A stretch of DNA of 64,000 nucleotides, from NCBI RefSeq assembly GCF_016026235.1, contig NZ_CP065613.1. One strand, 5' to 3'. The stretch is from Escherichia coli. Its GTDB lineage: Bacteria > Pseudomonadota > Gammaproteobacteria > Enterobacterales > Enterobacteriaceae. The notes beneath the pieces are model-generated. The model was not told where the DNA came from. It worked only from the letters and a program-made list of their open reading frames with translations, and made no database searches. Position numbers and translations under genes: made by a program. Below are positions 16,231-64,000 of the stretch, piece by piece. How positions within the stretch are numbered: the stretch's first letter is position 1; every line of letters begins with the position of its first letter.

Positions 16231-16262
16231 GCCGGATGCGGCGTGAACGCTTTATCTGGACA
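16231..16262. repeat. REP (repetitive extragenic palindromic) element
   Basis: GCCGGATGCGGCGTGAACGCTTTATCTGG matches the REP consensus; lies downstream of ymjA. Confidence 0.55.
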
Positions 16263-25579: not shown

Positions 25580-25660
25580 GTCTGATACGCTGCGCTTATC
25601 AGACCTGCAAACGACGTATTGATTATGTATGCCGGATAAGGCGTTCACGCCGCATCCGGC
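25580..25660. repeat. BIME: two REP elements between puuE and pspF
   Basis: GTCTGATACGCTGCGCTTATCAGAC (25580-25604) and GCCGGATAAGGCGTTCACGCCGCATCCGGC (25631-25660). Confidence 0.65.
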
Positions 25661-28433: not shown

Positions 28434-28748
28434 ATGTTTAAAAAAGGCTTACTTGCTCTGGCACTGGTGTTTTCACTGCCCGTTTTCGCCGCTGAACACT
28501 GGATCGATGTTCGTGTTCCAGAGCAGTATCAGCAAGAGCACGTTCAGGGGGCCATCAATATTCCCCTGAAGGAAGTGAAAGAGCGCATTGCCACCGCCGT
28601 TCCGGATAAAAACGACACCGTGAAAGTGTATTGCAATGCCGGACGCCAGTCAGGGCAAGCAAAAGAGATCCTTAGCGAGATGGGATATACCCACGTTGAG
28701 AACGCCGGTGGCCTGAAAGACATCGCAATGCCGAAGGTCAAAGGTTAA
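28434..28748 (+). CDS. pspE: Periplasmic rhodanese (thiosulfate sulfurtransferase) PspE
   Basis: 104 aa; signal peptide and rhodanese active-site Cys (CNAGRQS). Confidence 0.9.
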   Translation: MFKKGLLALALVFSLPVFAAEHWIDVRVPEQYQQEHVQGAINIPLKEVKERIATAVPDKNDTVKVYCNAGRQSGQAKEILSEMGYTHVENAGGLKDIAMPKVKG

Positions 28749-28763
28749 AAGAATTCACCATGA

Positions 28764-28788
28764 GCGGCGCTTATGCGCCGTTTTTTTT
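28764..28788 (+). terminator. Intrinsic terminator after pspE
   Basis: Stem CGGCGC-TTAT-GCGCCG followed by T8. Confidence 0.75.
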
Positions 28789-28932
28789 CTGTCACACCTT
28801 ATTTACATCCCCATAGATTATTTGCGTCAGCTCACAAATACGCTTTTTCCCTGGTAAAAAATGATTTCCTGCGTGACTAAAACCCTTGTGCTCAATTGAC
28901 AGTTTATTTTCTGCGGAGTAGTCTCTCGTTTC

Positions 28933-28948
28933 ATGGGACCGCTACCAC
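28933..28948. promoter_or_regulatory. Candidate YcjW (LacI-family) operator 1, upstream of ycjM
   Basis: ATGGGACCGCTACCAC: imperfect dyad with central CG (TGGnAnC-GnTnCCA pattern), 12 bp upstream of the ycjM ATG; identical 16-mer at 38860-38875. Confidence 0.55.
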
Positions 28949-28959
28949 GGAAAGGCAAC

Positions 28960-30639
28960 ATGAAACAGAAAATTACGGATTACCTGGACGAAATCTACGA
29001 TGGAACATTTACCGCAACTCATTTACAGAAACTTGTAACGCGTCTTGAGAGTGCGAAACGATTAATTACACAGCGACGTAAAAAACACTGGGATGAAAGT
29101 GATGTCGTGTTAATTACCTATGCCGATCAATTTCACAGCAATGATTTAAAACCATTACCCACATTTAATCAGTTTTACCATCAATGGCTGCAAAGCATTT
29201 TTTCACATGTTCATTTGTTGCCGTTTTATCCATGGTCATCTGATGATGGCTTTTCGGTAATTGATTATCATCAGGTCGCCAGTGAAGCGGGGGAGTGGCA
29301 GGATATTCAGCAACTCGGTGAATGCAGTCATTTAATGTTTGATTTTGTCTGCAACCATATGTCGGCAAAAAGTGAATGGTTTAAAAACTATTTACAACAG
29401 CATCCAGGTTTTGAAGATTTTTTTATTGCCGTTGACCCGCAAACCGATCTCAGCGCCGTCACTCGCCCGCGTGCGTTACCGTTATTAACGCCATTCCAGA
29501 TGCGCGATCATTCAACGCGCCATTTATGGACCACCTTTAGTGACGATCAAATTGACCTGAATTACCGTAGCCCTGAAGTGTTGCTGGCGATGGTGGATGT
29601 TTTACTCTGTTACCTTGCGAAAGGTGCTGAGTATGTCCGCCTGGATGCCGTTGGCTTTATGTGGAAAGAGCCGGGAACAAGCTGCATCCATCTGGAAAAA
29701 ACACATCTGATTATCAAACTGTTACGGTCGATTATTGATAACGTTGCGCCAGGTACAGTGATCATTACCGAGACCAATGTTCCGCATAAAGACAACATTG
29801 CTTACTTTGGCGCAGGCGATGACGAAGCACATATGGTGTACCAGTTCTCGCTGCCGCCACTGGTGCTGCATGCGGTGCAAAAACAGAACGTTGAGGCGCT
29901 TTGTGCGTGGGCGCAAAACCTGACACTACCTTCCAGCAACACCACCTGGTTTAACTTCCTCGCCTCTCACGATGGCATCGGGCTAAACCCGCTACGGGGC
30001 TTGTTGCCTGAAAGCGAAATATTAGAGCTGGTCGAGGCGTTACAGCAGGAAGGTGCATTAGTAAACTGGAAAAATAATCCCGACGGTACACGCAGTCCGT
30101 ATGAAATAAATGTGACCTATATGGATGCGTTAAGCCGCCGTGAGAGTAGCGATGAAGAACGTTGCGCCAGGTTTATTCTCGCCCATGCGATTTTGTTAAG
30201 TTTCCCCGGTGTGCCAGCGATATATATTCAAAGTATTCTTGGCTCGCGTAATGATTACGCAGGTGTCGAAAAACTCGGATATAACCGTGCGATTAACCGT
30301 AAAAAATATCACAGTAAAGAGATAACCCGAGAACTGAACGATGAAGCTACATTAAGGCATGCGGTATATCATGAGTTGTCGCGTTTAATTACACTTCGTC
30401 GCAGCCATAACGAGTTTCATCCGGATAATAATTTTACCATCGATACGATTAATTCATCCGTAATGCGTATTCAAAGAAGTAACGCTGATGGTAATTGTCT
30501 GACTGGATTGTTTAATGTCAGTAAAAATATTCAGCATGTAAATATTACTAATCTGCATGGTCGGGATCTGATTAGTGAAGTTGATATATTGGGTAATGAA
30601 ATAACGCTGCGCCCCTGGCAGGTTATGTGGATTAAATAA
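28960..30639 (+). CDS. ycjM: GH13_18 sucrose-phosphorylase-like glycoside phosphorylase (glucosylglycerate phosphorylase)
   Basis: ORF 28933..30639; start at MKQKITDYLDE. Confidence 0.88.
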   Translation: MKQKITDYLDEIYDGTFTATHLQKLVTRLESAKRLITQRRKKHWDESDVVLITYADQFHSNDLKPLPTFNQFYHQWLQSIFSHVHLLPFYPWSSDDGFSVIDYHQVASEAGEWQDIQQLGECSHLMFDFVCNHMSAKSEWFKNYLQQHPGFEDFFIAVDPQTDLSAVTRPRALPLLTPFQMRDHSTRHLWTTFSDDQIDLNYRSPEVLLAMVDVLLCYLAKGAEYVRLDAVGFMWKEPGTSCIHLEKTHLIIKLLRSIIDNVAPGTVIITETNVPHKDNIAYFGAGDDEAHMVYQFSLPPLVLHAVQKQNVEALCAWAQNLTLPSSNTTWFNFLASHDGIGLNPLRGLLPESEILELVEALQQEGALVNWKNNPDGTRSPYEINVTYMDALSRRESSDEERCARFILAHAILLSFPGVPAIYIQSILGSRNDYAGVEKLGYNRAINRKKYHSKEITRELNDEATLRHAVYHELSRLITLRRSHNEFHPDNNFTIDTINSSVMRIQRSNADGNCLTGLFNVSKNIQHVNITNLHGRDLISEVDILGNEITLRPWQVMWIK

Positions 30640-30652
30640 AAAGGAACATCTC

Positions 30653-31945
30653 ATGATTAAATCAAAAATCGTGCTGTTATCAGCACTGGTTTCCTGCGCC
30701 CTGATTTCAGGCTGTAAAGAAGAAAATAAAACGAATGTATCCATCGAATTTATGCATTCTTCGGTGGAGCAGGAGCGCCAGGCCGTTATCAGTAAATTGA
30801 TTGCCCGTTTTGAAAAAGAAAACCCTGGCATCACCGTTAAGCAAGTGCCCGTGGAAGAAGATGCCTATAACACTAAAGTCATTACTCTTTCACGTAGCGG
30901 TTCGCTGCCGGAAGTGATCGAAACCAGCCATGACTACGCCAAAGTGATGGACAAAGAGCAGCTTATCGATCGCAAAGCGGTTGCCACAGTCATCAGCAAC
31001 GTTGGTGAAGGCGCGTTTTACGATGGCGTACTGCGTATTGTGCGTACCGAAGATGGTAGCGCATGGACCGGTGTTCCTGTCAGCGCCTGGATTGGCGGTA
31101 TCTGGTATCGCAAAGATGTGCTGGCAAAAGCGGGGCTTGAGGAGCCGAAAAACTGGCAACAGCTGCTGGACGTTGCACAGAAACTGAATGACCCGGCGAA
31201 TAAAAAATACGGCATTGCGCTGCCTACAGCAGAAAGCGTGTTGACGGAACAATCCTTCTCCCAGTTTGCGTTATCCAACCAGGCTAACGTCTTTAACGCC
31301 GAAGGCAAAATCACCCTTGATACACCAGAGATGATGCAGGCACTGACCTATTACCGCGACCTTGCTGCCAACACTATGCCGGGTTCTAACGACATCATGG
31401 AAGTGAAAGACGCCTTTATGAACGGCACCGCGCCGATGGCGATTTACTCCACCTATATCCTTCCGGCTGTGATTAAAGAAGGCGACCCGAAAAACGTCGG
31501 TTTCGTGGTGCCAACCGAGAAAAACTCTGCGGTCTACGGCATGTTGACCTCGCTGACCATTACCGCCGGGCAAAAGACCGAAGAGACGGAAGCAGCAGAA
31601 AAATTTGTCACCTTTATGGAGCAGGCAGACAACATTGCCGACTGGGTGATGATGTCGCCAGGTGCTGCGCTGCCGGTGAATAAAGCGGTTGTCACTACCG
31701 CCACCTGGAAAGACAACGACGTTATTAAGGCGCTGGGTGAACTACCGAATCAGCTAATCGGTGAACTGCCAAATATTCAGGTCTTTGGTGCAGTAGGGGA
31801 TAAAAACTTTACCCGCATGGGTGATGTGACGGGTTCTGGCGTGGTGAGCTCCATGGTGCATAACGTCACCGTGGGTAAAGCCGATCTCCCTGGCACGCTG
31901 CAAGCGAGCCAGAAAAAGCTGGATGAACTGATCGAACAGCACTAA
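30653..31945 (+). CDS. ycjN: Sugar ABC transporter periplasmic binding protein
   Basis: 430 aa; lipoprotein-type signal (LISGC). Confidence 0.9.
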   Translation: MIKSKIVLLSALVSCALISGCKEENKTNVSIEFMHSSVEQERQAVISKLIARFEKENPGITVKQVPVEEDAYNTKVITLSRSGSLPEVIETSHDYAKVMDKEQLIDRKAVATVISNVGEGAFYDGVLRIVRTEDGSAWTGVPVSAWIGGIWYRKDVLAKAGLEEPKNWQQLLDVAQKLNDPANKKYGIALPTAESVLTEQSFSQFALSNQANVFNAEGKITLDTPEMMQALTYYRDLAANTMPGSNDIMEVKDAFMNGTAPMAIYSTYILPAVIKEGDPKNVGFVVPTEKNSAVYGMLTSLTITAGQKTEETEAAEKFVTFMEQADNIADWVMMSPGAALPVNKAVVTTATWKDNDVIKALGELPNQLIGELPNIQVFGAVGDKNFTRMGDVTGSGVVSSMVHNVTVGKADLPGTLQASQKKLDELIEQH

Positions 31946-31965
31946 ACCCAGGACAGGAATCCGCA

Positions 31966-32847
31966 ATGAACAGGCTTTTTTCAGGTCGTTCCGATATGCC
32001 CTTTGCGCTGCTGCTTCTCGCGCCCAGCTTATTACTGCTGGGTGGTCTGGTGGCCTGGCCAATGGTGTCGAATATCGAAATCAGTTTTTTACGTCTGCCG
32101 CTCAATCCCAACATCGAGTCAACCTTTGTTGGGGTGAGTAACTATGTGCGTATCCTCTCCGAGCCCGGCTTCTGGCACTCGCTGTGGATGACGGTCTGGT
32201 ATACCGCGCTGGTGGTGGCGGGCAGCACCGTCCTCGGGCTGGCAGTGGCGATGTTTTTCAACCGCGAGTTCCGCCTGCGCAAAACCGCGCGTTCGCTGGT
32301 GATCCTCTCCTACGTAACGCCGTCCATTTCGCTGGTGTTTGCCTGGAAATACATGTTCAACAACGGCTACGGCATTGTGAACTACCTCGGCGTCGATCTT
32401 CTGCATCTCTATGAGCAGGCACCACTGTGGTTCGATAATCCGGGCAGTAGCTTTGTGCTGGTGGTGCTGTTCGCCATCTGGCGCTACTTCCCGTATGCCT
32501 TTATCTCGTTTCTGGCGATTTTGCAGACCATCGACAAATCGCTGTACGAAGCGGCAGAGATGGATGGCGCTAATGCCTGGCAACGGTTTCGTATCGTCAC
32601 GCTGCCCGCGATTATGCCGGTCCTGGCGACGGTGGTGACCCTGCGCACCATCTGGATGTTCTACATGTTCGCGGATGTTTATTTGCTGACGACCAAGGTC
32701 GATATTCTCGGTGTATATCTCTACAAAACCGCCTTTGCCTTTAATGACTTAGGGAAAGCGGCGGCGATCTCGGTGGTGCTATTCATCATTATTTTCGCTG
32801 TCATTCTGCTGACCAGAAAACGGGTGAACCTCAATGGCAACAAATAA
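31966..32847 (+). CDS. ycjO: Sugar ABC transporter permease
   Basis: 293 aa; MalF/G-type permease. Confidence 0.9.
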   Translation: MNRLFSGRSDMPFALLLLAPSLLLLGGLVAWPMVSNIEISFLRLPLNPNIESTFVGVSNYVRILSEPGFWHSLWMTVWYTALVVAGSTVLGLAVAMFFNREFRLRKTARSLVILSYVTPSISLVFAWKYMFNNGYGIVNYLGVDLLHLYEQAPLWFDNPGSSFVLVVLFAIWRYFPYAFISFLAILQTIDKSLYEAAEMDGANAWQRFRIVTLPAIMPVLATVVTLRTIWMFYMFADVYLLTTKVDILGVYLYKTAFAFNDLGKAAAISVVLFIIIFAVILLTRKRVNLNGNK

Positions 32848-33676
32848 ACGCACACTCAGTCGCATCGGTTTTTACTGCGGGCTGGCGCTGTTTCTCATCA
32901 TCACGCTATTTCCGTTTTTTGTGATGCTGATGACCTCGTTCAAGGGCGCGAAAGAGGCGATCTCACTGCATCCTACGCTGCTGCCGCAGCAGTGGACGCT
33001 GGAGCATTACGTCGACATTTTTAACCCGATGATTTTCCCGTTTGTCGACTACTTCCGTAACAGTCTGGTGGTGTCGGTGGTTTCATCCGTGGTGGCGGTA
33101 TTCCTCGGCATTCTTGGGGCTTACGCGCTTTCCCGCCTGCGCTTTAAAGGTCGGATGACCATCAATGCCAGCTTTTACACGGTGTATATGTTCTCTGGCA
33201 TTTTGCTGGTGGTGCCGCTGTTCAAAATCATCACCGCGCTGGGCATTTACGACACCGAGATGGCGCTGATCATCACCATGGTGACGCAAACTCTGCCCAC
33301 CGCCGTGTTTATGCTGAAAAGCTACTTCGACACCATCCCCGATGAGATCGAAGAAGCGGCGATGATGGATGGCCTCAACCGTCTGCAAATTATCTTCCGC
33401 ATCACCGTGCCGTTGGCGATGTCCGGGCTGATATCCGTGTTCGTCTACTGCTTTATGGTGGCGTGGAACGACTATCTGTTTGCGTCGATTTTCCTCTCCA
33501 GCGCCAGCAATTTCACCTTACCGGTGGGCCTGAACGCGCTGTTCAGTACGCCAGATTACATCTGGGGACGGATGATGGCGGCCTCACTGGTGACCGCATT
33601 GCCGGTGGTGATTATGTATGCGCTTTCGGAACGTTTTATTAAGAGTGGTTTGACCGCCGGTGGCGTGAAGGGCTAA
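32834..33676 (+). CDS. ycjP: Sugar ABC transporter permease
   Basis: 280 aa; overlaps the ycjO end. Confidence 0.9.
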   Translation: MATNKRTLSRIGFYCGLALFLIITLFPFFVMLMTSFKGAKEAISLHPTLLPQQWTLEHYVDIFNPMIFPFVDYFRNSLVVSVVSSVVAVFLGILGAYALSRLRFKGRMTINASFYTVYMFSGILLVVPLFKIITALGIYDTEMALIITMVTQTLPTAVFMLKSYFDTIPDEIEEAAMMDGLNRLQIIFRITVPLAMSGLISVFVYCFMVAWNDYLFASIFLSSASNFTLPVGLNALFSTPDYIWGRMMAASLVTALPVVIMYALSERFIKSGLTAGGVKG

Positions 33677-33706
33677 AGCGGCCAGTTTCTTTACAAGGAG
33701 TTTTAA

Positions 33707-34759
33707 ATGAAAAAGTTAGTAGCCACAGCACCCCGTGTTGCTGCGCTGGTTGAGTATGAAGATCGGGCGATTTTAGCCAATGAAGTGAAAATCCGCGTGC
33801 GTTTCGGCGCACCGAAACACGGAACGGAAGTGGTCGACTTCCGCGCCGCCAGCCCGTTTATCGATGAAGACTTTAACGGCGAATGGCAGATGTTCACTCC
33901 GCGTCCGGCAGATGCGCCGCGCGGCATTGAGTTTGGCAAATTCCAGCTTGGCAACATGGTGGTTGGCGACATTATCGAGTGCGGCAGCGACGTTACCGAC
34001 TACGCGGTGGGCGACAGCGTATGCGGCTACGGCCCGCTCTCCGAGACGGTCATCATTAACGCGGTGAATAACTACAAGCTGCGCAAAATGCCGGAAGGCA
34101 GCTCGTGGGAAAACGCCGTTTGTTACGACCCGGCGCAGTTTGCCATGAGCGGCGTGCGCGATGCCAACGTGCGCGTGGGTGATTTTGTTGTGGTGGTAGG
34201 GCTTGGCGCGATTGGTCAAATTGCCATTCAACTGGCGAAACGCGCTGGCGCGTCGGTCGTGATTGGCGTCGATCCTATCGCCCATCGCTGTGATATTGCC
34301 CGTCGCCACGGCGCGGATTTCTGCCTTAACCCCATTGGTACTGACGTAGGCAAAGAGATCAAAACGCTGACCGGCAAGCAGGGTGCCGATGTGATTATCG
34401 AAACCAGCGGCTATGCCGACGCGCTGCAATCGGCGTTCCGCGGTCTGGCCTACGGTGGCACCATCTCCTATGTCGCGTTTGCCAAACCATTTGCTGAAGG
34501 TTTTAACCTCGGACGCGAAGCGCATTTCAATAACGCCAAAATTGTTTTCTCCCGCGCGTGCAGCGAACCGAACCCGGATTATCCGCGCTGGAGCCGTAAG
34601 CGTATTGAAGAAACCTGCTGGGAACTGCTGATGAACGGTTATCTCAATTGCGAAGATTTAATCGACCCGGTAGTGACCTTTGCCAATAGCCCGGAAAGCT
34701 ACATGCAGTATGTCGATCAGCATCCGGAACAGAGCATCAAAATGGGCGTTACGTTTTAA
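33707..34759 (+). CDS. ycjQ: Zn-dependent medium-chain sugar dehydrogenase
   Basis: 350 aa; MDR family with GLGAIG Rossmann motif. Confidence 0.9.
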   Translation: MKKLVATAPRVAALVEYEDRAILANEVKIRVRFGAPKHGTEVVDFRAASPFIDEDFNGEWQMFTPRPADAPRGIEFGKFQLGNMVVGDIIECGSDVTDYAVGDSVCGYGPLSETVIINAVNNYKLRKMPEGSSWENAVCYDPAQFAMSGVRDANVRVGDFVVVVGLGAIGQIAIQLAKRAGASVVIGVDPIAHRCDIARRHGADFCLNPIGTDVGKEIKTLTGKQGADVIIETSGYADALQSAFRGLAYGGTISYVAFAKPFAEGFNLGREAHFNNAKIVFSRACSEPNPDYPRWSRKRIEETCWELLMNGYLNCEDLIDPVVTFANSPESYMQYVDQHPEQSIKMGVTF

Positions 34760-34776
34760 TTCAAAGGAATGAAAAA

Positions 34777-35565
34777 ATGAAAATAGGCACACAGAATCAG
34801 GCATTCTTTCCGGAAAACATTCTGGAGAAATTTCGTTATATCAAAGAGATGGGCTTCGATGGTTTTGAGATTGACGGCAAACTGCTGGTCAACAATCTCG
34901 AAGAAGTCAAAGCAGCAATCAAAGAAACCGGTTTACCGGTGACCACCGCCTGCGGTGGCTATGACGGTTGGATTGGCGACTTTATCGAAGAGCGTCGTCT
35001 TAATGGCTTAAAGCAGATCGAACGCATTCTCGAAGCGCTGGCAGAAGTGGGGGGTAAGGGTATCGTCGTTCCGGCAGCGTGGGGCATGTTTACCTTCCGC
35101 TTACCGCCGATGACCTCGCCGCGTAGCCTGGACGGCGACCGCAAAATGGTGAGTGATTCCCTGCGCGTACTGGAACAGGTCGCCGCGCGTACCGGAACCG
35201 TGGTGTATCTCGAACCGTTAAACCGCTATCAGGATCATATGATCAACACCCTCGCCGATGCCCGCCGTTACATCGTCGAAAACGATCTTAAACATGTACA
35301 GATTATCGGCGATTTCTATCACATGAATATCGAAGAAGATAACCTGGCGCAGGCGCTGCATGACAACCGCGACCTGCTCGGTCATGTGCATATTGCGGAT
35401 AACCATCGCTACCAGCCGGGCAGCGGCACCCTGGATTTCCACGCGCTGTTTGAACAGCTGCGCGCGGATAACTATCAGGGCTATGTAGTGTACGAAGGGC
35501 GTATCCGGGCGGAAGATCCTGCCCAGGCGTACCGTGATTCGTTGGCCTGGTTGCGTACCTGCTAA
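34777..35565 (+). CDS. ycjR: Sugar phosphate isomerase/epimerase (TIM barrel)
   Basis: 262 aa. Confidence 0.9.
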   Translation: MKIGTQNQAFFPENILEKFRYIKEMGFDGFEIDGKLLVNNLEEVKAAIKETGLPVTTACGGYDGWIGDFIEERRLNGLKQIERILEALAEVGGKGIVVPAAWGMFTFRLPPMTSPRSLDGDRKMVSDSLRVLEQVAARTGTVVYLEPLNRYQDHMINTLADARRYIVENDLKHVQIIGDFYHMNIEEDNLAQALHDNRDLLGHVHIADNHRYQPGSGTLDFHALFEQLRADNYQGYVVYEGRIRAEDPAQAYRDSLAWLRTC

Positions 35566-35574
35566 GAGGTCTTT

Positions 35575-36630
35575 GTGAAAAGTGCAATGACAAGCTCTCC
35601 GCTGCGGGTCGCGATAATAGGCGCAGGCCAAGTGGCGGATAAGGTTCATGCTTCGTACTACTGCACCCGCAACGATCTGGAACTGGTGGCTGTCTGTGAC
35701 AGCCGCCTTTCCCAGGCGCAGGCGCTGGCAGATAAATACGGTAATGCATCCGTGTGGGACGATCCGCAGGCCATGCTGCTGGCGGTGAAACCTGATGTGG
35801 TTAGCGTCTGCTCACCTAACCGTTTTCATTACGAACATACCCTGATGGCACTGGAAGCGGGCTGCCATGTGATGTGCGAAAAACCGCCCGCCATGACGCC
35901 AGAACAGGCGCGGGAAATGTGCGATACCGCGCGCAAACTGGGCAAGGTGCTGGCCTACGACTTTCACCATCGTTTTGCGCTCGATACGCAACAGCTGCGT
36001 GAACAGGTGACCAACGGCGTTTTGGGAGAGATTTACGTTACCACCGCCCGCGCCCTGCGTCGCTGCGGCGTTCCCGGCTGGGGCGTCTTTACCAATAAAG
36101 AACTGCAGGGTGGTGGCCCGCTGATCGACATCGGCATTCATATGCTGGATGCTGCGATGTATGTGCTGGGCTTTCCGGCGGTGAAAAGCGTGAATGCGCA
36201 TAGCTTTCAAAAGATCGGCACGCAAAAGAGCTGTGGTCAATTTGGCGAGTGGGATCCGGCAACTTATAGCGTCGAAGATTCGCTGTTTGGCACCATTGAA
36301 TTTCATAACGGCGGCATTCTGTGGCTGGAAACGTCATTTGCACTCAACATCCGCGAACAGTCGATTATGAACGTCAGCTTTTGTGGTGATAAAGCCGGTG
36401 CGACGCTGTTTCCAGCACATATCTACACCGATAACAACGGTGAATTAATGACGCTGATGCAACGGGAAATGGCAGACGACAACCGCCATTTGCGCAGCAT
36501 GGAAGCCTTTATCAATCACGTACAGGGCAAGCCCGTGATGATAGCCGACGCCGAGCAGGGGTACATCATCCAGCAACTGGTGGCGGCGTTGTATCAATCC
36601 GCAGAAACAGGGACGCGTGTGGAATTATGA
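35575..36630 (+). CDS. ycjS: Gfo/Idh/MocA-family NAD-dependent oxidoreductase
   Basis: 351 aa; N-terminal Rossmann LRVAIIGAGQVA. Confidence 0.9.
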   Translation: MKSAMTSSPLRVAIIGAGQVADKVHASYYCTRNDLELVAVCDSRLSQAQALADKYGNASVWDDPQAMLLAVKPDVVSVCSPNRFHYEHTLMALEAGCHVMCEKPPAMTPEQAREMCDTARKLGKVLAYDFHHRFALDTQQLREQVTNGVLGEIYVTTARALRRCGVPGWGVFTNKELQGGGPLIDIGIHMLDAAMYVLGFPAVKSVNAHSFQKIGTQKSCGQFGEWDPATYSVEDSLFGTIEFHNGGILWLETSFALNIREQSIMNVSFCGDKAGATLFPAHIYTDNNGELMTLMQREMADDNRHLRSMEAFINHVQGKPVMIADAEQGYIIQQLVAALYQSAETGTRVEL

Positions 36631-38894
36631 CCAGGCCAGTAACGTTATCAGAACCCCATTTCAGCCAGCATACCCTGAACAAGTATGCATCGCTGATGGC
36701 GCAGGGGAACGGCTATCTTGGGCTTCGCGCCAGCCATGAAGAAGATTACACGCGCCAGACGCGAGGGATGTATCTGGCGGGGCTGTATCATCGGGCGGGA
36801 AAAGGTGAAATCAACGAACTGGTGAACCTGCCTGATATCTTGGGGATGGAGATTGCCATAAATGGTGAGGTTTTCTCGTTATCCCGCGAAGCCTGGCAGC
36901 GTGAACTTGACTTTGCCAGTGGAGAATTACGCCGTAGCGTTGTCTGGCGTACCAGCAACGGCACAGGTTACACCATCGCCAGCCGTCGCTTTGTTTCGGC
37001 AGACCAACTGCCGCTCATTGTGCTGGAAATCACTATTACGCCACTGGACGCCGACGCGTCAGTGCTGATTTCAACAGGTATCGACGCTACGCAAACCAAC
37101 CACGGTCGCCAACATCTCGACGAAACCCAGGTGCGGGTGTTTGGTCAGCATCTGATGCAGGGGATCTACACCACCCAGGATGGACGCAGTGATGTGGCCA
37201 TCAGCTGTTGCTGTATGGTGAGCGGTGATGTGCAGCAATGCTATACCGCCAAAGAGCGCCGTTTGCAGCAACATACCAGTGCGCAGCTTCATGCAGGCGA
37301 GACAGTGACGTTGCAAAAACTGGTGTGGATCGACTGGCGGGATGACAGGCAAGCCGTTTTAGACGAGTGGGGCAGCGCGTCGCTTCGCCAGCTTGAAATG
37401 TGCGCGCAGCAGAGTTACGACCAACTTCTTGCAGTATCAACAGAAAACTGGCGTCAATGGTGGCAGAAACGTCGTATCACGGTAAATGGCGGCGAAGCGC
37501 ACGATCAGCAAGCGTTAGATTATGCGCTTTATCATCTGCGCATCATGACGCCTGCCCACGACGAGCGCAGCAGCATTGCGGCAAAAGGCTTAACCGGCGA
37601 AGGCTACAAAGGCCACGTTTTCTGGGATACAGAAGTATTTTTGTTACCGTTTCATCTGTTTAGCGATCCGACGGTTGCCCGAAGTTTACTGCGTTATCGC
37701 TGGCACAACTTGCCAGGCGCGCAGGAGAAAGCGCGACGCAACGGCTGGCAGGGCGCGCTATTTCCGTGGGAAAGCGCGCGCAGCGGCGAAGAAGAGACGC
37801 CGGAATTTGCCGCCATTAACATTCGCACCGGGCTGCGGCAAAAAGTGGCCTCGGCGCAGGCGGAACATCATCTGGTGGCCGATATCGCCTGGGCGGTTAT
37901 TCAATACTGGCAGACCACGGGGGATGAAAGTTTCATTGCGCATGAAGGCATGGCGCTACTTCTGGAAACTGCAAAGTTCTGGATTAGCCGCGCGGTGAGG
38001 GTTAACGACCGTCTGGAAATTCATGATGTTATTGGGCCTGACGAATATACCGAACATGTCAATAATAACGCCTTCACCAGCTATATGGCGTATTACAACG
38101 TCCAGCAGGCGCTGAGTATTGCCCGCCAGTTTGGCTGTAGCGACGATGCGTTTATCCATCGCGCCGAAATGTTCCTTAAAGAACTGCGGCTGCCAGAAAT
38201 TCAGCCCGACGGCGTTTTGCCGCAGGATGATTCGTTTATGGCTAAGCCGGCGATTAATCTGGCGAAATACAAAGCGGCGGCGGGGAAGCAAACCATTCTG
38301 CTGGATTATTCACGCGCAGAAGTGAACGAGATGCAAATCCTCAAACAAGCTGATGTGGTGATGCTCAATTACATGCTGCCGGAGCAGTTCTCAGCGGCAT
38401 CGTGTCTTGCCAATCTGCAATTTTATGAACCGCGCACTATTCACGACTCGTCATTAAGTAAAGCAATCCACGGCATTGTTGCCGCACGCTGTGGCCTGCT
38501 GACCCAAAGTTATCAGTTCTGGCGCGAGGGGACTGAAATCGATCTTGGTGCTGATCCGCATAGTTGTGATGATGGTATCCATGCTGCCGCAACTGGCGCT
38601 ATCTGGCTGGGGGCGATTCAGGGTTTTGCCGGGGTGAGCGTGCGTGACGGTGAATTGCATCTCAATCCGGCGTTACCTGAGCAGTGGCAACAGTTGTCTT
38701 TCCCTCTGTTCTGGCAGGGCTGCGAATTACAGGTCACGCTCGACGCGCAGCGTATTGCGATTCGAACTTCTGCGCCCGTTTCACTGCGTTTGAACGGGCA
38801 GCTTATATCCGTGGCTGAAGAATCTGTTTTCTGTTTGGGTGATTTTATTTTGCCCTTCAATGGGACCGCTACCACACATCAGGAGGATGAATGA
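36627..38894 (+). CDS. ycjT: GH65 glycoside phosphorylase (kojibiose phosphorylase)
   Basis: 755 aa; start overlaps the ycjS stop. Confidence 0.9.
38860..38875. promoter_or_regulatory. Candidate YcjW operator 2, inside the 3' end of ycjT and upstream of ycjU
   Basis: Exact copy of ATGGGACCGCTACCAC, 16 bp upstream of the ycjU ATG. Confidence 0.55.
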
Positions 38895-39550
38895 AACTGC
38901 AAGGGGTAATTTTCGATCTGGATGGTGTAATCACCGATACCGCGCATCTGCATTTCCAGGCGTGGCAGCAGATTGCCGCTGAAATTGGCATCAGCATTGA
39001 TGCGCAGTTTAACGAATCCCTAAAAGGGATCAGCCGCGATGAGTCTCTGCGGCGCATTCTGCAACACGGGGGCAAAGAGGGCGACTTTAACTCGCAGGAG
39101 AGGGCGCAACTGGCGTATCGCAAAAATCTGCTCTATGTCCACTCACTGCGCGAGTTGACGGTCAACGCTGTTCTACCCGGCATTCGCTCTTTGCTGGCAG
39201 ATCTCCGTGCACAGCAGATCCCGGTTGGGCTGGCTTCTGTCTCCCTGAATGCGCCGACGATTTTAGCGGCGCTGGAGCTGCGCGAGTTTTTCACCTTCTG
39301 CGCGGATGCTTCCCAACTTAAAAACTCGAAACCGGACCCGGAAATCTTTCTCGCCGCCTGTGCAGGGCTGGGCGTGCCGCCGCAGGCATGTATCGGCATT
39401 GAAGATGCGCAGGCGGGCATTGACGCCATTAACGCCAGCGGTATGCGCTCGGTGGGGATCGGCGCGGGCATAACCGGGGCGCAATTACTATTGCCTTCAA
39501 CGGACTCCCTGACCTGGTCGCGGTTATCGGCCTTCTGGCAAAACGTATAG
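38891..39550 (+). CDS. ycjU: Beta-phosphoglucomutase (HAD superfamily)
   Basis: 219 aa; HAD motif I ([10 protein letters not shown]). Confidence 0.9.
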
Positions 39551-39563
39551 CAAAGGAATCAAC

Positions 39564-40646
39564 ATGGCTCAGCTTTCGTTACAACATATTCAAAAAATCT
39601 ACGATAACCAGGTGCATGTGGTGAAGGACTTCAACCTGGAAATTGCCGATAAAGAGTTCATCGTGTTTGTCGGTCCGTCAGGCTGCGGTAAGTCGACCAC
39701 CCTGCGCATGATTGCTGGGCTTGAGGAGATCAGCGGCGGCGATCTGTTGATCGACGGCAAACGAATGAATGACGTTCCAGCCAAAGCACGCAATATAGCG
39801 ATGGTGTTCCAGAACTACGCGTTGTATCCGCATATGACGGTTTACGACAACATGGCGTTTGGCCTGAAGATGCAAAAAATCGCCAAAGAGGTGATTGATG
39901 AGCGGGTGAACTGGGCGGCGCAAATTCTCGGCCTGCGTGAGTACCTGAAACGCAAGCCGGGCGCGCTTTCCGGCGGGCAACGCCAGCGTGTGGCGCTCGG
40001 GCGGGCGATTGTGCGCGAAGCGGGCGTGTTTTTAATGGATGAACCACTCTCTAACCTTGATGCCAAGCTGCGCGTGCAAATGCGCGCAGAGATCAGCAAG
40101 CTGCACCAGAAGCTGAATACCACCATGATCTACGTGACCCACGATCAGACCGAAGCGATGACCATGGCGACGCGGATTGTGATTATGAAGGATGGGATTG
40201 TTCAGCAAGTTGGTGCGCCGAAAACGGTTTATAACCAACCAGCGAATATGTTTGTTGCCGGATTTATTGGATCACCGGCGATGAATTTTATTCGTGGCAC
40301 GATCGATGGCGATAAATTCGTTACGGAAACGCTTAAATTAACCATTCCCGAAGAGAAATTAGCGGTTCTGAAAACACAGGGAAGTTTGCATAAGCCCATC
40401 GTGATGGGAATACGTCCGGAAGATATTCATCCGGACGCGCAAGAGGAAAATAACATTTCCGCCAAAATTAGCGTGGCAGAATTAACCGGTGCGGAATTTA
40501 TGCTCTACACCACGGTTGGGGGGCACGAGTTAGTGGTCCGTGCTGGTGCGTTAAATGATTATCATGCAGGAGAAAATATCACTATTCATTTTGATATGAC
40601 GAAATGTCATTTCTTTGATGCAGAAACGGAAATAGCAATTCGCTAA
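39564..40646 (+). CDS. ycjV: Sugar ABC transporter ATPase (MalK-like), full length
   Basis: 360 aa; Walker A GPSGCGKST, signature LSGGQRQR, C-terminal regulatory domain present. Confidence 0.9.
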   Translation: MAQLSLQHIQKIYDNQVHVVKDFNLEIADKEFIVFVGPSGCGKSTTLRMIAGLEEISGGDLLIDGKRMNDVPAKARNIAMVFQNYALYPHMTVYDNMAFGLKMQKIAKEVIDERVNWAAQILGLREYLKRKPGALSGGQRQRVALGRAIVREAGVFLMDEPLSNLDAKLRVQMRAEISKLHQKLNTTMIYVTHDQTEAMTMATRIVIMKDGIVQQVGAPKTVYNQPANMFVAGFIGSPAMNFIRGTIDGDKFVTETLKLTIPEEKLAVLKTQGSLHKPIVMGIRPEDIHPDAQEENNISAKISVAELTGAEFMLYTTVGGHELVVRAGALNDYHAGENITIHFDMTKCHFFDAETEIAIR

Positions 40647-40690
40647 ATACAGGGGGAAGGCATTCCCCCAGAATAATACAAGGAACAATA

Positions 40691-41596
40691 ATGAAAAAGT
40701 TATTACCCTGTACCGCACTGGTGATGTGTGCGGGAATGGCCTGCGCACAGGCCGAGGAAAAGAACGACTGGCACTTTAATATCGGCGCGATGTACGAAAT
40801 AGAAAACGTCGAGGGTTATGGCGAAGATATGGATGGGCTGGCGGAGCCTTCAGTCTATTTTAATGCCGCCAACGGGCCGTGGAGAATTGCTCTGGCCTAT
40901 TATCAGGAAGGGCCGGTAGATTATAGCGCGGGTAAACGTGGAACGTGGTTTGATCGCCCGGAGCTGGAGGTGCATTATCAGTTCCTCGAAAACGATGATT
41001 TCAGTTTCGGCCTGACCGGCGGTTTCCGTAATTATGGTTATCACTACGTTGATGAACCGGGTAAAGACACGGCGAATATGCAGCGCTGGAAAATCGCGCC
41101 AGACTGGGATGTGAAACTGACTGACGATTTACGTTTCAACGGTTGGTTGTCGATGTATAAATTTGCCAACCATCTGAACACTACCGGTTACGCTGATACC
41201 CGTGTCGAAACGGAAACAGGTCTGCAATATACCTTCAACGAAACGGTTGCCTTGCGAGTGAACTATTATCTCGAGCGCGGCTTCAATATGGACGACAGCC
41301 GCAATAACGGTGAGTTTTCCACGCAAGAAATTCGCGCCTATTTGCCGCTGACGCTCGGCAACCACTCGGTGACGCCGTATACGCGCATTGGGCTGGATCG
41401 CTGGAGTAACTGGGACTGGCAGGATGATATTGAACGTGAAGGCCATGATTTTAACCGTGTAGGTTTATTTTACGGTTATGATTTCCAGAACGGACTTTCC
41501 GTTTCGCTGGAATACGCGTTTGAGTGGCAGGATCACGACGAAGGCGACAGTGATAAATTCCATTATGCAGGTGTCGGCGTAAATTACTCGTTCTGA
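40691..41596 (+). CDS. ompG: Outer membrane porin OmpG
   Basis: 301 aa; signal peptide and beta-barrel ending in a C-terminal aromatic residue (YSF). Confidence 0.9.
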   Translation: MKKLLPCTALVMCAGMACAQAEEKNDWHFNIGAMYEIENVEGYGEDMDGLAEPSVYFNAANGPWRIALAYYQEGPVDYSAGKRGTWFDRPELEVHYQFLENDDFSFGLTGGFRNYGYHYVDEPGKDTANMQRWKIAPDWDVKLTDDLRFNGWLSMYKFANHLNTTGYADTRVETETGLQYTFNETVALRVNYYLERGFNMDDSRNNGEFSTQEIRAYLPLTLGNHSVTPYTRIGLDRWSNWDWQDDIEREGHDFNRVGLFYGYDFQNGLSVSLEYAFEWQDHDEGDSDKFHYAGVGVNYSF

Positions 41597-41706: not shown

Positions 41707-42705
41707 TTATTTCAGCGTCATATGCGTGGCAACGGTAATATTCTGTGGTGACGGTTTTCCAGAAATTAAGCGGAATAATAACTCGCAGCTTTTTTGACCT
41801 AACTCCTGCGTCGGAACATCGATGCCGCCTGGTGCAGGCGTTAAAATAAACGACAGCGTTTCATTACTATAACCCACCACCGCTAACTGCTGCGGAATAG
41901 CAATATTTTTCTCTGCCGCCGCACGATAAATGCTCATTAATTTCAGGCTGTCAGTGGCAAACACTGCCTCAGGCAACGGTGACTGACTTAATAATTGCCG
42001 TGCTGCTTGCAGTGCTGTTTCATGGGTATAACCGCCATCAACAATCCATTCATCACGCACTGCAATATTATGCGCGGACAGACTTTGCTTATAGCCATTA
42101 ACGCGGTCAACCGAAACATGGACATCAAGCGACGCATGCAGACAGGCAATATTTTGATGCCCACTTTCAATTAATGCATCGGTCAACGCAATGCTGTCGC
42201 CAAAATTATCGGTATCGACAGAATAAACATGGGCATATTGACCTTCAACTTTGCCAATCACCACCACAGGAATATCGTATTTATCAAGTTGGGCAAAAAA
42301 TGACTCATCCGCTGGCGAACTTAGCATAATAATGCCTTTAATCATTTTCTGCTTAATTTTGCTTTCACATTTTTGTAAGTCTTCTGCCAGGTTGTGCGAC
42401 GTTTGTAATATCACGTCGAAACCTTCTTCTTCCGCTTTGGCGGTGATGGCATGTAGAACTTCTGAGAAAAACGGATTACCCGCCGTAGTTTTGGTCGAAC
42501 GGGTAGAAATCACCATAATGGCATCAAAACCCGAAGAGGTCAGCGCGCGGGCCAGCTTGTTTGGCTGATACTGTAATTCTTCAATGGCCCGTAACACTTT
42601 TTCGCGCGCTTCCGGGGAGATATTAGTTTGCTTATTCAGCACGCGTGATACGGTGGATTTTGATACGCCTGCAACCCTGGCAATATCATAAATAGTAGGG
42701 GACAT
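41707..42705 (-). CDS. ycjW: LacI-family transcriptional repressor YcjW
   Basis: 332 aa; N-terminal HTH ([21 protein letters not shown]) and periplasmic-binding-protein-like core. Confidence 0.9.
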
Positions 42706-55203: not shown

Positions 55204-56496
55204 CTGAGGAATCCCCAGAAAACAAGACAGGCATAGTGAGATGTGATCTAATTGATTGTGCTAACAATTTCAAGGAGATCACCACTATGCCTGCACGTTC
55301 ATTATGCCAAAATTTCCTTAACAATATACTGGCCCCTTTGCATCTTTACCGTCAAAAATCACTGATTGACGCAACTAATGCTGTAATAAATGGCGCTTCC
55401 CTCACACTTACCAGTATCGGGCGTCATTTAACCGGTACGGCATCAGTTAAAAACAAAATAAAGCGGGTGGATCGACTGTTGGGGAATCGACATTTGCAAA
55501 ATGAGGTTTCCACCATTTTTCAGCGAATTACCCAAAAGATTACGCGGGGAATGTCTCGTGTTGTGATACTCATTGACTGGAGTGCTTATCATGCCTCTCG
55601 TTTTCAGCTTTTGCGGGCAAGCCTGGCATGTGACGGGCGTTCTTTACCGTTGATGAGTTGTGTCGTTCCATCATCACAGACAGCGAATGCAGATGTACAT
55701 GAGCGTTTTCTGGAATCGCTTGCTGAGTGCTTTTCCCCGGGACTGATGTCATTGTTATTACAGATGCCGGTTTTCAGGGGCGATGGTTCCAACAGCTCCG
55801 CTCCCGTGGCTGGACCTATATTTGCCGGGTACTGGGCAATCATTATTACAATGTTGGTAATGGCTGGGAAAAGGTGTCGGACTCAGGCACAAAAGCATCA
55901 ACGACAGCAATTTATTTAGGTGAAGGCCTGCTGGGTCGAGATAAAAATGCACAACATGAAGGGCATTTTTATCTTTATAAAAGTAAGCCTAAAGGTCGTA
56001 GATTTAAACGCTCGAAGGAAAGAGCAACCAGACCATCGGTGACGGCTAAAGCTCGTACTGCCGGGAAATCACCATGGTTTATTTTCACAAACAGTACTGA
56101 GTTCTCGCCAAAACAGGTAATGAAATTATACAGCCGTAGAATGCAAATTGAGCAAAATTTCAGGGATGAAAAAAATCCTCGCTGGGGATTTGGACTACGG
56201 TTTGGTGCCAGTCATTCATCCGGGCGGGTCACGGTATTGAGTCTGATCGCAACATTAGCCAGTATCATTATGTGGTTAAGCGGTTTCAGCCTGGAAAACA
56301 AAGGGATACATCATAAATATCAGGCAAATACAGTGAAGCACAGGCGAGTCATCTCGTTATTAAAACTGGCGGAGAATGTGATTCGACATTCTCCACTCAT
56401 ACTAAACACACTGTCACTTGACGCAGGGCTGAAAGTTCTACAGCAACGGTATACCAATATGATAATGGTTTACTAAATTTTCTGGGGATCCCTCAG
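55204..56496 (+). mobile_element. IS10-like (IS4-family) insertion sequence, copy 1 (1293 bp)
   Basis: Terminal inverted repeats CTGAGGAATCCCCAGAAAA / TTTTCTGGGGATCCCTCAG; flanked by direct repeat AGATTGTCC(C). Confidence 0.9.
55287..56476 (+). pseudogene. IS10-like transposase, frameshifted (copy 1)
   Basis: Reading frame splits into ORFs 55197..55919 and 55727..56476; C4 run at 55735-55738 where copy 2 has C5. Confidence 0.85.
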
Positions 56497-62078: not shown

Positions 62079-62112
62079 CCGTTCTCTCTTAAGACAAACG
62101 TGGGTAAATCCC

Positions 62113-63406
62113 CTGAGGAATCCCCAGAAAACAAGACAGGCATAGTGAGATGTGATCTAATTGATTGTGCTAACAATTTCAAGGAGATCACCACTATGCC
62201 TGCACGTTCATTATGCCAAAATTTCCTTAACAACATACTGGCCCCTTTGCATCTTTACCGTCAAAAATCACTGATTGACGCAACTAATGCTGTAATAAAT
62301 GGCGCTTCCCTCACACTTACCAGTATCGGGCGTCATTTAACCGGTACGGCATCAGTTAAAAACAAAATAAAGCGGGTGGATCGACTGTTGGGGAATCGAC
62401 ATTTGCAAAATGAGGTTTCCACCATTTTTCAGCGAATTACCCAAAAGATTACGCGGGGAATGTCTCGTGTTGTGATACTCATTGACTGGAGTGCTTATCA
62501 TGCCTCTCGTTTTCAGCTTTTGCGGGCAAGCCTGGCATGTGACGGGCGTTCTTTACCGTTGATGAGTTGTGTCGTTCCATCATCACAGACAGCGAATGCA
62601 GATGTACATGAGCGTTTTCTGGAATCGCTTGCTGAGTGCTTTTCCCCCGGGACTGATGTCATTGTTATTACAGATGCCGGTTTTCAGGGGCGATGGTTCC
62701 AACAGCTCCGCTCCCGTGGCTGGACCTATATTTGCCGGGTACTGGGCAATCATTATTACAATGTTGGTAATGGCTGGGAAAAGGTGTCGGACTCAGGCAC
62801 AAAAGCATCAACGACAGCAATTTATTTAGGTGAAGGCCTGCTGGGTCGAGATAAAAATGCACAACATGAAGGGCATTTTTATCTTTATAAAAGTAAGCCT
62901 AAAGGTCGTAGATTTAAACGCTCGAAGGAAAGAGCAACCAGACCATCGGTGACGGCTAAAGCTCGTACTGCCGGGAAATCACCATGGTTTATTTTCACAA
63001 ACAGTACTGAGTTCTCGCCAAAACAGGTAATGAAATTATACAGCCGTAGAATGCAAATTGAGCAAAATTTCAGGGATGAAAAAAATCCTCGCTGGGGATT
63101 TGGACTACGGTTTGGTGCCAGTCATTCATCCGGGCGGGTCACGGTATTGAGTCTGATCGCAACATTAGCCAGTATCATTATGTGGTTAAGCGGTTTCAGC
63201 CTGGAAAACAAAGGGATACATCATAAATATCAGGCAAATACAGTGAAGCACAGGCGAGTCATCTCGTTATTAAAACTGGCGGAGAATGTGATTCGACATT
63301 CTCCACTCATACTAAACACACTGTCACTTGACGCAGGGCTGAAAGTTCTACAGCAACGGTATACCAATATGATAATGGTTTACTAAATTTTCTGGGGATC
63401 CCTCAG
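62113..63406 (+). mobile_element. IS10-like (IS4-family) insertion sequence, copy 2 (1294 bp, intact)
   Basis: Same terminal repeats as copy 1; flanked by direct repeat GGTAAATCC(C); same orientation as copy 1. Confidence 0.9.
62196..63386 (+). CDS. IS10-like DDE transposase (IS4 family)
   Basis: 396 aa; motifs IKRVDRLLGNRHL, ITDAGF, YSRRMQIEQNFRD, YQANTV match IS10 transposase blocks; SD AAGGAG 9 nt before the ATG. Confidence 0.88.
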   Translation: MPARSLCQNFLNNILAPLHLYRQKSLIDATNAVINGASLTLTSIGRHLTGTASVKNKIKRVDRLLGNRHLQNEVSTIFQRITQKITRGMSRVVILIDWSAYHASRFQLLRASLACDGRSLPLMSCVVPSSQTANADVHERFLESLAECFSPGTDVIVITDAGFQGRWFQQLRSRGWTYICRVLGNHYYNVGNGWEKVSDSGTKASTTAIYLGEGLLGRDKNAQHEGHFYLYKSKPKGRRFKRSKERATRPSVTAKARTAGKSPWFIFTNSTEFSPKQVMKLYSRRMQIEQNFRDEKNPRWGFGLRFGASHSSGRVTVLSLIATLASIIMWLSGFSLENKGIHHKYQANTVKHRRVISLLKLAENVIRHSPLILNTLSLDAGLKVLQQRYTNMIMVY

Positions 63407-63554: not shown

Positions 63555-64000
63555 AAAGCGATTTTTTGATTTTTCTGCCTGAAGAAATGAGGGCAAGCCA
63601 TCACATGGATCGAGGGTGGGATAATTCCAGTCAGTGAAATTTTACCGTAGGCTATCTGTTATTTGATTCTGTGGCGTGATAGCCGCCAGACACCACTGAA
63701 CTCGTCACTCATTCCCCAATCCCGGCGAGAATGTGGTTATTTACAGAGCTAAAAATGAATAAAAAATAGAGCCTGTCGACATCCGCCAGACTCTACAGTA
63801 CACACAGCAGTGCATCCTCGTCTTAAATCCGGCCTGGGGTCCTTGTGACCGGTGACAGTGTTATAACGGTTTTACCCATCCGTTGCCAATTTTCTTCAGT
63901 GACAGATTTCACGAAAATATAAGTTAAATCATTTGTCTTGTGATTGCATAATCATGCATCGTTAATCGACGAGTAAATTTACCGGGCGAGTAGCCCGTTC

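Follow-up and report, generated by a model that had tools for sequence, protein, structure and literature searches.

Our analysis shows that an exact 16-nucleotide repeat framing the ycjM-ycjT block carries two operators for the LacI-family repressor YcjW, one (O_M) directly upstream of ycjM and the other (O_U) directly upstream of ycjU. Two earlier studies located both sites and tested them by experiment (Luhachack et al, 2019, PMC6599011; Gao et al, 2021, PMC8464067), and the preliminary description that proposed them is correct on a point that was already known. We hold with high confidence that O_M serves to block the operon at the ycjM promoter, and that O_U adds a second layer of repression. 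The cross-species footprint of the operators, the placement of the ycjM promoter and the constraint on the ycjT coding frame go further than what we found in PMC6599011 and PMC8464067.

A match search of the window (the whole 64-kb stretch of DNA analyzed here) located the exact 16-mer ATGGGACCGCTACCAC at 28933-28948 and 38860-38875, as previously described, with both copies on the + strand and 9,927 bp apart. No further copy was found in the window, even when up to three mismatches were allowed. The first copy ends 11 nt before the ycjM ATG at 28960, and the second ends 15 nt before the ycjU ATG at 38891; since this ATG overlaps the ycjT stop codon (ATGA), the second copy falls within the last codons of ycjT. 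The copies diverge right outside the 16 nt, with c versus a at the base before and g versus a at the base after. The flanking A and C that complete the 16-mer vary in other genera, and the functional unit is the 14-bp core TGGGACCGCTACCA, which occupies 28934-28947 in O_M and 38861-38874 in O_U and lies 12 nt and 16 nt, respectively, from the two start codons. An ATG at 28933, formed by the first three bases of the 16-mer in the ycjM frame, was rejected as the true ycjM start: it has no Shine-Dalgarno sequence, and the frame is closed in other genera. The annotated ycjM start in other genera lies 10-14 nt past the operator.

The core has the dyad form TGGnAnC-GnTnCCA that was reported for it, with half-sites (TGGGACC and TGGTAGC) alike at five of seven positions. 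Read as TGGGACC followed by GCTACCA, it conforms to LacI/GalR-family operators, which are dyads of ~14-20 bp with a central C-G. The repeat by itself says little, as the preliminary description had cautioned: an i.i.d. model predicts 0.48 exact direct 16-mer pairs in 64 kb, and we set the bare repeat aside as not significant because four more non-IS direct repeats of 16-18 nt occur in the window (1378/35893, 5777/26471, 5904/49004 and 50162/51485). When we scanned the window with a position weight matrix built from known and orthologous YcjW sites, both operators scored 20.2 bits. The best remaining site in the 64 kb scored 12.2 bits, and the scan revealed no additional YcjW site, including an autoregulatory one at the ycjW promoter. 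No RNA element was found at either operator; Rfam gave a single match in the whole window, to McaS (63758-63853). A predicted YcjW motif was reportedly tested by Zuo and Stormo in 2014. YcjW is not named in the main text of Ravcheev 2014.

The genes from the start of ycjM to the end of ycjT span 28960-38894 on the + strand, as assigned from open reading frames and the RefSeq annotation of the matching MG1655 region. Downstream of O_U, open reading frames and annotation place ycjU (pgmB, beta-phosphoglucomutase), ycjV (an ABC ATPase) and ompG (a monomeric porin) at 38891-41596 on the same strand; ycjV is intact in this non-K-12 strain and encodes 360 amino acids. The LacI-family gene said to follow the cluster is indeed there: ycjW lies past ompG and convergent with it, at 41707-42705 on the minus strand. 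Its 332-amino acid product matches CcpA, PurR, RbsR and LacI in the Protein Data Bank as well as NCBIfam LacI-family models, and carries the RefSeq name 'DNA-binding transcriptional repressor YcjW', all of which place it in the LacI/GalR family. The linkage of ycjW to its target genes is kept in all full-length loci. On the other side, the upstream neighbor of the ycjM control region is pspE, which together with a terminator-like hairpin (28762-28783, from a terminator scan) is annotated at 28434-28783 on the + strand.

Binding, repression and inducer release have all been demonstrated in published experiments. By ChIP-seq with FLAG-tagged YcjW, Luhachack et al found their top two regions directly ahead of the ycjM start codon and at the ycjT/ycjU junction, with a 14-bp motif common to both (PMC6599011). 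Purified YcjW shifted their ycjM EMSA probe LL58, which is identical to window positions 28916-28965 and contains O_M. The EMSA probes in that study were from ycjM, narP and cyaA, and we found none for the ycjU site in its primer list. The YcjW-DNA complex was disrupted by 0.5-1 mM kojibiose and not by sucrose or trehalose; the authors doubted that kojibiose is the natural inducer (PMC6599011). Deletion of ycjW raised ycjM, ycjT, ycjU and ompG mRNA by 20-60 fold, and mildly derepressed pspE (PMC6599011). In the ChIP-exo data of Gao et al, the two strongest YcjW peaks are assigned to ycjU (S/N 1665) and ycjM (S/N 840) (PMC8464067). After conversion between genome versions, their ycjM interval appears to lie ~106 bp downstream of O_M, and our matrix scan found no YcjW motif at that apparent position. 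The assignment of both sites to YcjW thus has ChIP-seq and ChIP-exo peaks at each of them, along with the EMSA at ycjM, behind it (PMC6599011; PMC8464067). We found nothing that argues against the operator identity of the two sites.

We compared 79 loci across species. The preliminary description had made its case depend on conservation in related genomes, and we found that 30 enterobacterial species, from Escherichia, Citrobacter, Salmonella diarizonae, Enterobacter, Leclercia, Lelliottia and others, carry the 14-bp core unchanged in both places; YcjT in these species has a median identity of ~64% to the protein in the window. In each of the 50 enterobacterial loci that include its region, and in Firmicute loci too, O_M is invariant or conforms to the motif at the equivalent position. 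O_U is present in 49 loci, 46 of which keep the core, read in the same frame. Where the operators vary, in Buttiauxella, Atlantibacter, Chimaeribacter and Firmicutes, every site conforms to TGGKASCGSTMCCA, and the Chimaeribacter operator is a perfect palindrome, TGGGAGCGCTCCCA. The distal site is absent in Chimaeribacter and the Firmicute relatives. The operator footprint at orthologous positions is strong, and adds to the published mapping.

The position of O_M points to control of initiation. We identified a predicted sigma-70 promoter for ycjM at 28896-28924 on the + strand, with a -35 element TTGACA (28896-28901), a 17-nt spacer and a -10 element TAGTCT (28919-28924). No other promoter-like site on the + strand scores as high anywhere in the window; a strict consensus scan missed this one, the -10 element matching at only three of six positions. 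In almost every Enterobacterales locus, TTGACA and TAG(T/A)(C/T)T recur at a constant 37-38 nt from the operator; in Chimaeribacter the distance is 34-35 nt. From these elements we infer a transcription start near 28931-28932, which would put O_M at about +3 to +16, with the -10 element ending 9 nt before the operator. O_M therefore has the promoter-occluding arrangement, an operator over the promoter and inferred start region. YcjW bound here, immediately past the -10 element, would block initiation or promoter escape for the entire ycjMNOPQRSTUV-ompG operon, and kojibiose or a related alpha-glucoside frees O_M from the repressor.

Upstream of this promoter we identified a CRP-like box, TTATTTGCGTCAGCTCACAAAT, at 28818-28839 on the + strand, centered at about -103.5 from the predicted ycjM start. 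Of 50 enterobacterial loci, ~47 have the box, at -70.5, -93.5 or -103.5/-104.5 relative to the predicted start, and in more distant species it is nearer the CRP consensus (e.g. AAATTTGAGTTAGTTCACATTT). We regard it as a putative CRP site; no published link between CRP and ycjM was found in the literature searched.

O_U lies within the coding tail of ycjT, where it is read as nnT GGG ACC GCT ACC Ann and specifies Gly-Thr-Ala-Thr. Such a site could be a chance repeat like the four other 16-18-mers that recur in the window, or, being in coding sequence with its frame fixed, could be kept solely for the peptide and have no function as DNA. The synonymous positions contradict this explanation. Among 93 positions of ycjT that encode invariant four-fold-degenerate residues, the third base is invariant at only four, and these are the four O_U codons; the other 89 vary at the third base, with a mean top-base frequency of 0.56. 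The longest invariant run in ycjT is the 14 nt at O_U (the next longest is 6 nt), and the YcjT tail flanking O_U varies freely whereas the synonymous positions under it are frozen. In Buttiauxella, which carries a variant operator, the peptide is altered along with it (Gly-Ser-Gly-Thr), and in Atlantibacter the O_U site is intergenic. In addition, ChIP-exo occupancy at O_U is the strongest in the genome (PMC8464067). We consider it next to impossible that O_U is a chance repeat or merely a conserved peptide, and the synonymous-site analysis rules out a protein-level cause of its conservation.

The proposed second layer of repression on ycjU-ycjV-ompG would act from O_U, 9.9 kb downstream of O_M, where the repressor is found in vivo directly before the ycjU ribosome-binding site. 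For its mode of action we infer two candidates, which fit the data equally well. In one, O_U blocks polymerases reading through from upstream as a roadblock, for which we put the chances a little short of even. O_U has the location expected of such a site, lying in a transcribed region and away from any conserved promoter. Published qRT-PCR of the ycjW deletion (PMC6599011) gives derepression of 28-62x for ycjM itself, 20-26x for ycjT, 39-58x for ycjU and 34-47x for ompG, so that the rise of ycjU and ompG is roughly double that of ycjT. The difference, small at twofold and an indirect measure, is consistent with an additional block at O_U.

In the other, YcjW at O_U would cover a promoter lying within the 3' end of ycjT, making ycjU-ycjV-ompG a repressible unit of its own; we consider this possible, if somewhat doubtful. 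The twofold excess of ycjU and ompG over ycjT would be expected here too. O_U is placed like O_M before the next gene, with operator, Shine-Dalgarno sequence and ATG within 8-23 nt, and in E. coli a -10-like TATTTT (38846-38851) lies 9 nt from O_U, just as TAGTCT does from O_M. In some Firmicutes, moreover, ycjU adjoins ycjW and is transcribed separately. Against this, TATTTT has no accompanying -35 element, and across the 49 loci we found no positionally conserved sigma-70 promoter near O_U and only weak candidates in E. coli. The best mean score near O_U in these loci is 4.18, compared to 6.18 for the ycjM promoter on an equal scale. The best E. coli candidate, with a -10 element ending at 38808/38809, varies even within Escherichia, and a conserved GAyTTy block ahead of O_U is accounted for by a conserved Asp-Phe in YcjT. 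A promoter repressed by O_U would be a weak and non-conserved one, and might depend on an activator or be of a non-canonical type.

A third arrangement, in which one repressor complex bound to both operators cooperates through DNA looping in the style of lac O1-O2 or gal OE-OI, is suggested by the presence of two identical high-affinity sites in one operon, both occupied in vivo. YcjW ends ~13 residues past its alignment to the LacI core, so it lacks the C-terminal tetramerization helix of LacI, in this respect resembling the dimeric PurR and CcpA. A published homology model likewise predicts a YcjW dimer (PMC8464067). We dropped looping on the missing helix and on the 9,927 bp between the sites; the Firmicute relatives and Chimaeribacter also manage without the distal site, and we regard this arrangement as very improbable.

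Returning to the roadblock, we tentatively propose that O_U is a conserved in-coding operator that works as a roadblock or insulator and not as a promoter operator. It would provide a second, independent lock on the large-channel porin OmpG, YcjU and YcjV against read-through from the 10-kb upstream block, and across Enterobacteriaceae constraint at the DNA level may have given kojibiose phosphorylase an otherwise meaningless Gly-Thr-Ala-Thr in its variable C-terminal tail. If true, a roadblock at O_U and the CRP-like box conserved at about -103.5 would together make an operon architecture that we did not find described in PMC6599011 or PMC8464067. The operon ties the catabolism of rare alpha-glucosides (kojibiose, glucosylglycerate) to expression of the porin OmpG, and its neighbor pspE links it to backup H2S production and antibiotic tolerance (PMC6599011). 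O_U may explain why ompG is silent in the laboratory, a modest question for operon specialists. More broadly, the case serves well as a positive control for operator prediction from raw sequence: the preliminary description had the operators, their dyad form and their two positions right, and all three had been confirmed by earlier experiments.

The closest known system is the published K-12 YcjW regulon itself (PMC6599011; PMC8464067), whose two sites, 14-bp motif, repressor and operon are all the same as those described here; in contrast to it, the strain in the window is not K-12 and has an intact ycjV. The lac operon similarly combines a promoter-proximal operator just past the start (O1, +11) with a second in coding sequence (O2, in lacZ, +401), under a LacI-family repressor that is freed by a disaccharide-type inducer. 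The LacI tetramer loops O1 and O2 over 401 bp, whereas YcjW has no tetramerization helix, and 9.9 kb and eight genes separate its sites. Dimeric LacI-family repressors can hinder elongating polymerase, as PurR does at its roadblock in purB and CcpA at cre sites in coding regions; these sites are all found within a few hundred nucleotides of the start of the unit. O_U differs from them in its position, a junction between genes far into a 13-kb operon, and any roadblock there is putative. Finally, gal resembles the YcjW system in that a single LacI-family dimer has two operators (OE and OI), of which one lies in the first structural gene, but the gal operators are 113 bp apart and loop with HU, a geometry that is unavailable to the YcjW sites.

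The + strand carries two exact copies of the 16-mer ATGGGACCGCTACCAC, at 28933-28948 and 38860-38875, and a search of the window at up to three mismatches yielded no third match. The window covers the E. coli pspE/ycjMNOPQRSTUV-ompG/ycjW region, with 99.9% identity to MG1655 over the tested stretch and ~98% across the aligned 41 kb. The ABC transporter ATPase gene ycjV (39564-40646) is an intact 360-aa ORF here and a frameshifted pseudogene in K-12 MG1655, indicating that the window comes from a non-K-12 strain. With the ycjM ATG at 28960 and the ycjU ATG at 38891, overlapping the ycjT stop codon, the preliminary description had correctly given the distances to both starts, the position of the second copy within the 3′ end of ycjT, and the imperfect dyad TGGnAnC-GnTnCCA with its central CG. 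Its caution that chance could yield one such repeat was also borne out: an i.i.d. model predicts ~0.5 exact direct 16-mer pairs per 64 kb, and the window holds four further direct repeats of 16-18 nt outside IS elements, so the repeat is no proof by itself. The argument for operators stands on motif, positions, and conservation. A weight matrix derived from known sites and orthologous ones assigns 20.2 bits each to the ycjM-proximal site (O_M; core 28934-28947) and the site at the ycjT/ycjU junction (O_U; core 38861-38874), and 12.2 to the runner-up in the window. We also noted an inverted 20-nt repeat of the REP-element type, GCCGGATGCGGCGTGAACGC, in two intergenic regions (16231-16250 and 25641-25660).

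Published data bear directly on both sites. ChIP-seq of chromosomally tagged YcjW identified a 14-bp LacI-type motif common to the bound regions at ycjM and ycjT/ycjU (Luhachack et al, 2019; PMC6599011). The EMSA probe from that study, LL58 (GAGTAGTCTCTCGTTTCATGGGACCGCTACCACGGAAAGGCAACatgAAAC), matches window 28916-28965 with no differences; purified YcjW shifted this probe and kojibiose freed it. In the same study, deletion of ycjW increased expression of ycjM 28-62-fold, ycjT 20-26-fold, ycjU 39-58-fold, and ompG 34-47-fold. By ChIP-exo, the top two YcjW peaks were ycjU (S/N 1665) and ycjM (S/N 840), and a palindromic motif was reported (Gao et al, 2021; PMC8464067). RefSeq names the ycjW product “DNA-binding transcriptional repressor YcjW”. 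The repeat is thus confirmed, and its interpretation as a pair of YcjW operators is supported and already published. For ChIP-exo intervals, we take the coordinate offset to be ~1976. The ycjM interval (NC_000913.2 1368320-1368355; PMC8464067) then falls at about window 29040-29075, inside ycjM and seemingly ~106 bp downstream of O_M, with no operator-like sequence beneath it, while the ycjU interval matches O_U exactly.

The predicted ycjM promoter, with a perfect -35 TTGACA (28896-28901), a 17-nt spacer, and a -10 TAGTCT (28919-28924) ending 9 nt before the operator, is the top promoter-like site on the window's + strand. Its distance from the operator is fixed in nearly all Enterobacterales loci and slightly shorter in Chimaeribacter, and direct reading of one Neobacillus locus showed the same arrangement. 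A position-averaged scan gave this promoter a score of 6.18, where the background was 2.73 ± 0.50. Given this placement, O_M would span ~+3 to +16 from the predicted start, a start-proximal region that lac O1 likewise covers. Further upstream, a conserved CRP-like box, TTATTTGCGTCAGCTCACAAAT (28818-28839), recurs in ~47 of 50 enterobacterial loci, centered at -70.5, -93.5, or -103.5/-104.5 from the predicted start, with a one-turn step between Enterobacter-type and Escherichia-type positions. The box matches the CRP consensus more closely in distant species (AAATTTGAGTTAGTTCACATTT), and we found no CRP-ycjM link in the literature searched.

We anchored 79 loci from species-representative genomes on YcjT and located the genes of the cluster in every one. 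The order ycjM...ompG followed by convergent ycjW is found in Escherichia, Citrobacter, Salmonella diarizonae, Enterobacter, Leclercia, Lelliottia, Buttiauxella, Atlantibacter, Siccibacter, and others; in Firmicutes (Neobacillus, Gottfriedia, Listeria), ycjW is divergent from ycjM. Phylogenetic footprinting, the check proposed in the preliminary description, revealed an identical core, TGGGACCGCTACCA, at both positions in 30 species. In an overlapping but not identical set of 33 genomes with the exact core in ycjT, median YcjT identity to the window protein is 64%. Core variants in the remaining lineages all conform to TGGKASCGSTMCCA: Buttiauxella carries TGGTACCGCTCCCA at ycjM and its reverse complement at ycjU, Chimaeribacter has a perfect palindrome, TGGGAGCGCTCCCA, at the ycjM position only, and in Firmicutes ycjM is preceded by 2-5 copies of TGGGAGCGGTACCA, with no operator at the ycjU position. 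Only the 14-bp core is conserved, as the extra A and C of the E. coli 16-mer differ among genera. The identical TGGGAGCGGTACCA copies lie between ycjW and ycjM in loci L054 (1970-2200; Neobacillus bataviensis), L053, L060, and L044; in L054, the first follows TTGACA-17 nt-TATATT by 7 nt, three more belong to a leader tandem repeat of 55 bp, and the last copy is 13 nt before the ATG.

Both operator regions were found in ~4,900-5,000 of 5,426 complete E. coli genomes, and substitutions spare the core in three of the four divergent strains sampled. The fourth, O157:H7 RIMD 0509939 (compared with window 28870-28982), has T10C in O_M, a 1-nt deletion immediately downstream of the core, and an annotated ycjM frameshift, suggesting that the cluster is decaying in this lineage. 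Escherichia sp. MOD1-EC7003 has one change in each operator. In E. coli FDAARGOS_943, an ISEc60 copy lies between uidR and ompG, directly upstream of the latter (locus L082, 595-2744), indicating that the ycjM-ycjV block was rearranged away from ompG-ycjW. The window itself has two direct copies of this IS4-like element (55200-56496 and 62109-63406; ~1.3 kb each, ~99.8% identical), flanking mppA', ynaI, ynaJ, uspE, fnr, and ogt. The first disrupts mppA and has its transposase broken by a 1-nt indel into two ORFs (55197-55919 and 55727-56476); the other copy, which follows ogt, retains an intact 428-aa ORF (62100-63386). Against Rfam, the window gives a single match, the McaS/IsrA small RNA gene (63758-63853, minus strand; RF00115, 108.8 bits).

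The C-terminal tail of YcjT is variable, and O_U falls within it, encoding Gly-Thr-Ala-Thr, with the frame kept in 46 of 49 loci. Among the 33 species that share the E. coli-type core, YcjT has 93 invariant four-fold-degenerate residues, and only the four in O_U have an invariant third base, a contrast rather than an independent test of significance since these species were picked for carrying the site. The longest invariant nucleotide run in ycjT in this set is the 14-nt operator; the next is 6. The peptide changes with the operator variant (Gly-Ser-Gly-Thr in Buttiauxella), and in Atlantibacter the site is intergenic, so it is the DNA that is under selection.

Derepression of ycjU and ompG is ~2 times that of ycjT (values from PMC6599011), which is compatible with an added block at O_U. 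We tentatively favor a roadblock, in which YcjW at O_U would halt polymerases arriving from upstream. Repression of a weak internal promoter by O_U is possible but somewhat more doubtful: the position-averaged scan found no positionally conserved sigma-70 promoter with O_U (best mean score 4.18, nothing near the operator), and the E. coli candidates near it are weak and not kept within Escherichia. The remaining, smaller probability goes to another effect or none. In the alignment with LacI, YcjW covers residues 5-313, and it stops 13 residues further on; it thus lacks the tetramerisation helix. This makes looping between O_M and O_U across 9.9 kb very unlikely, and in lacking the LacI tetramerisation helix YcjW resembles PurR and CcpA, which are dimeric.
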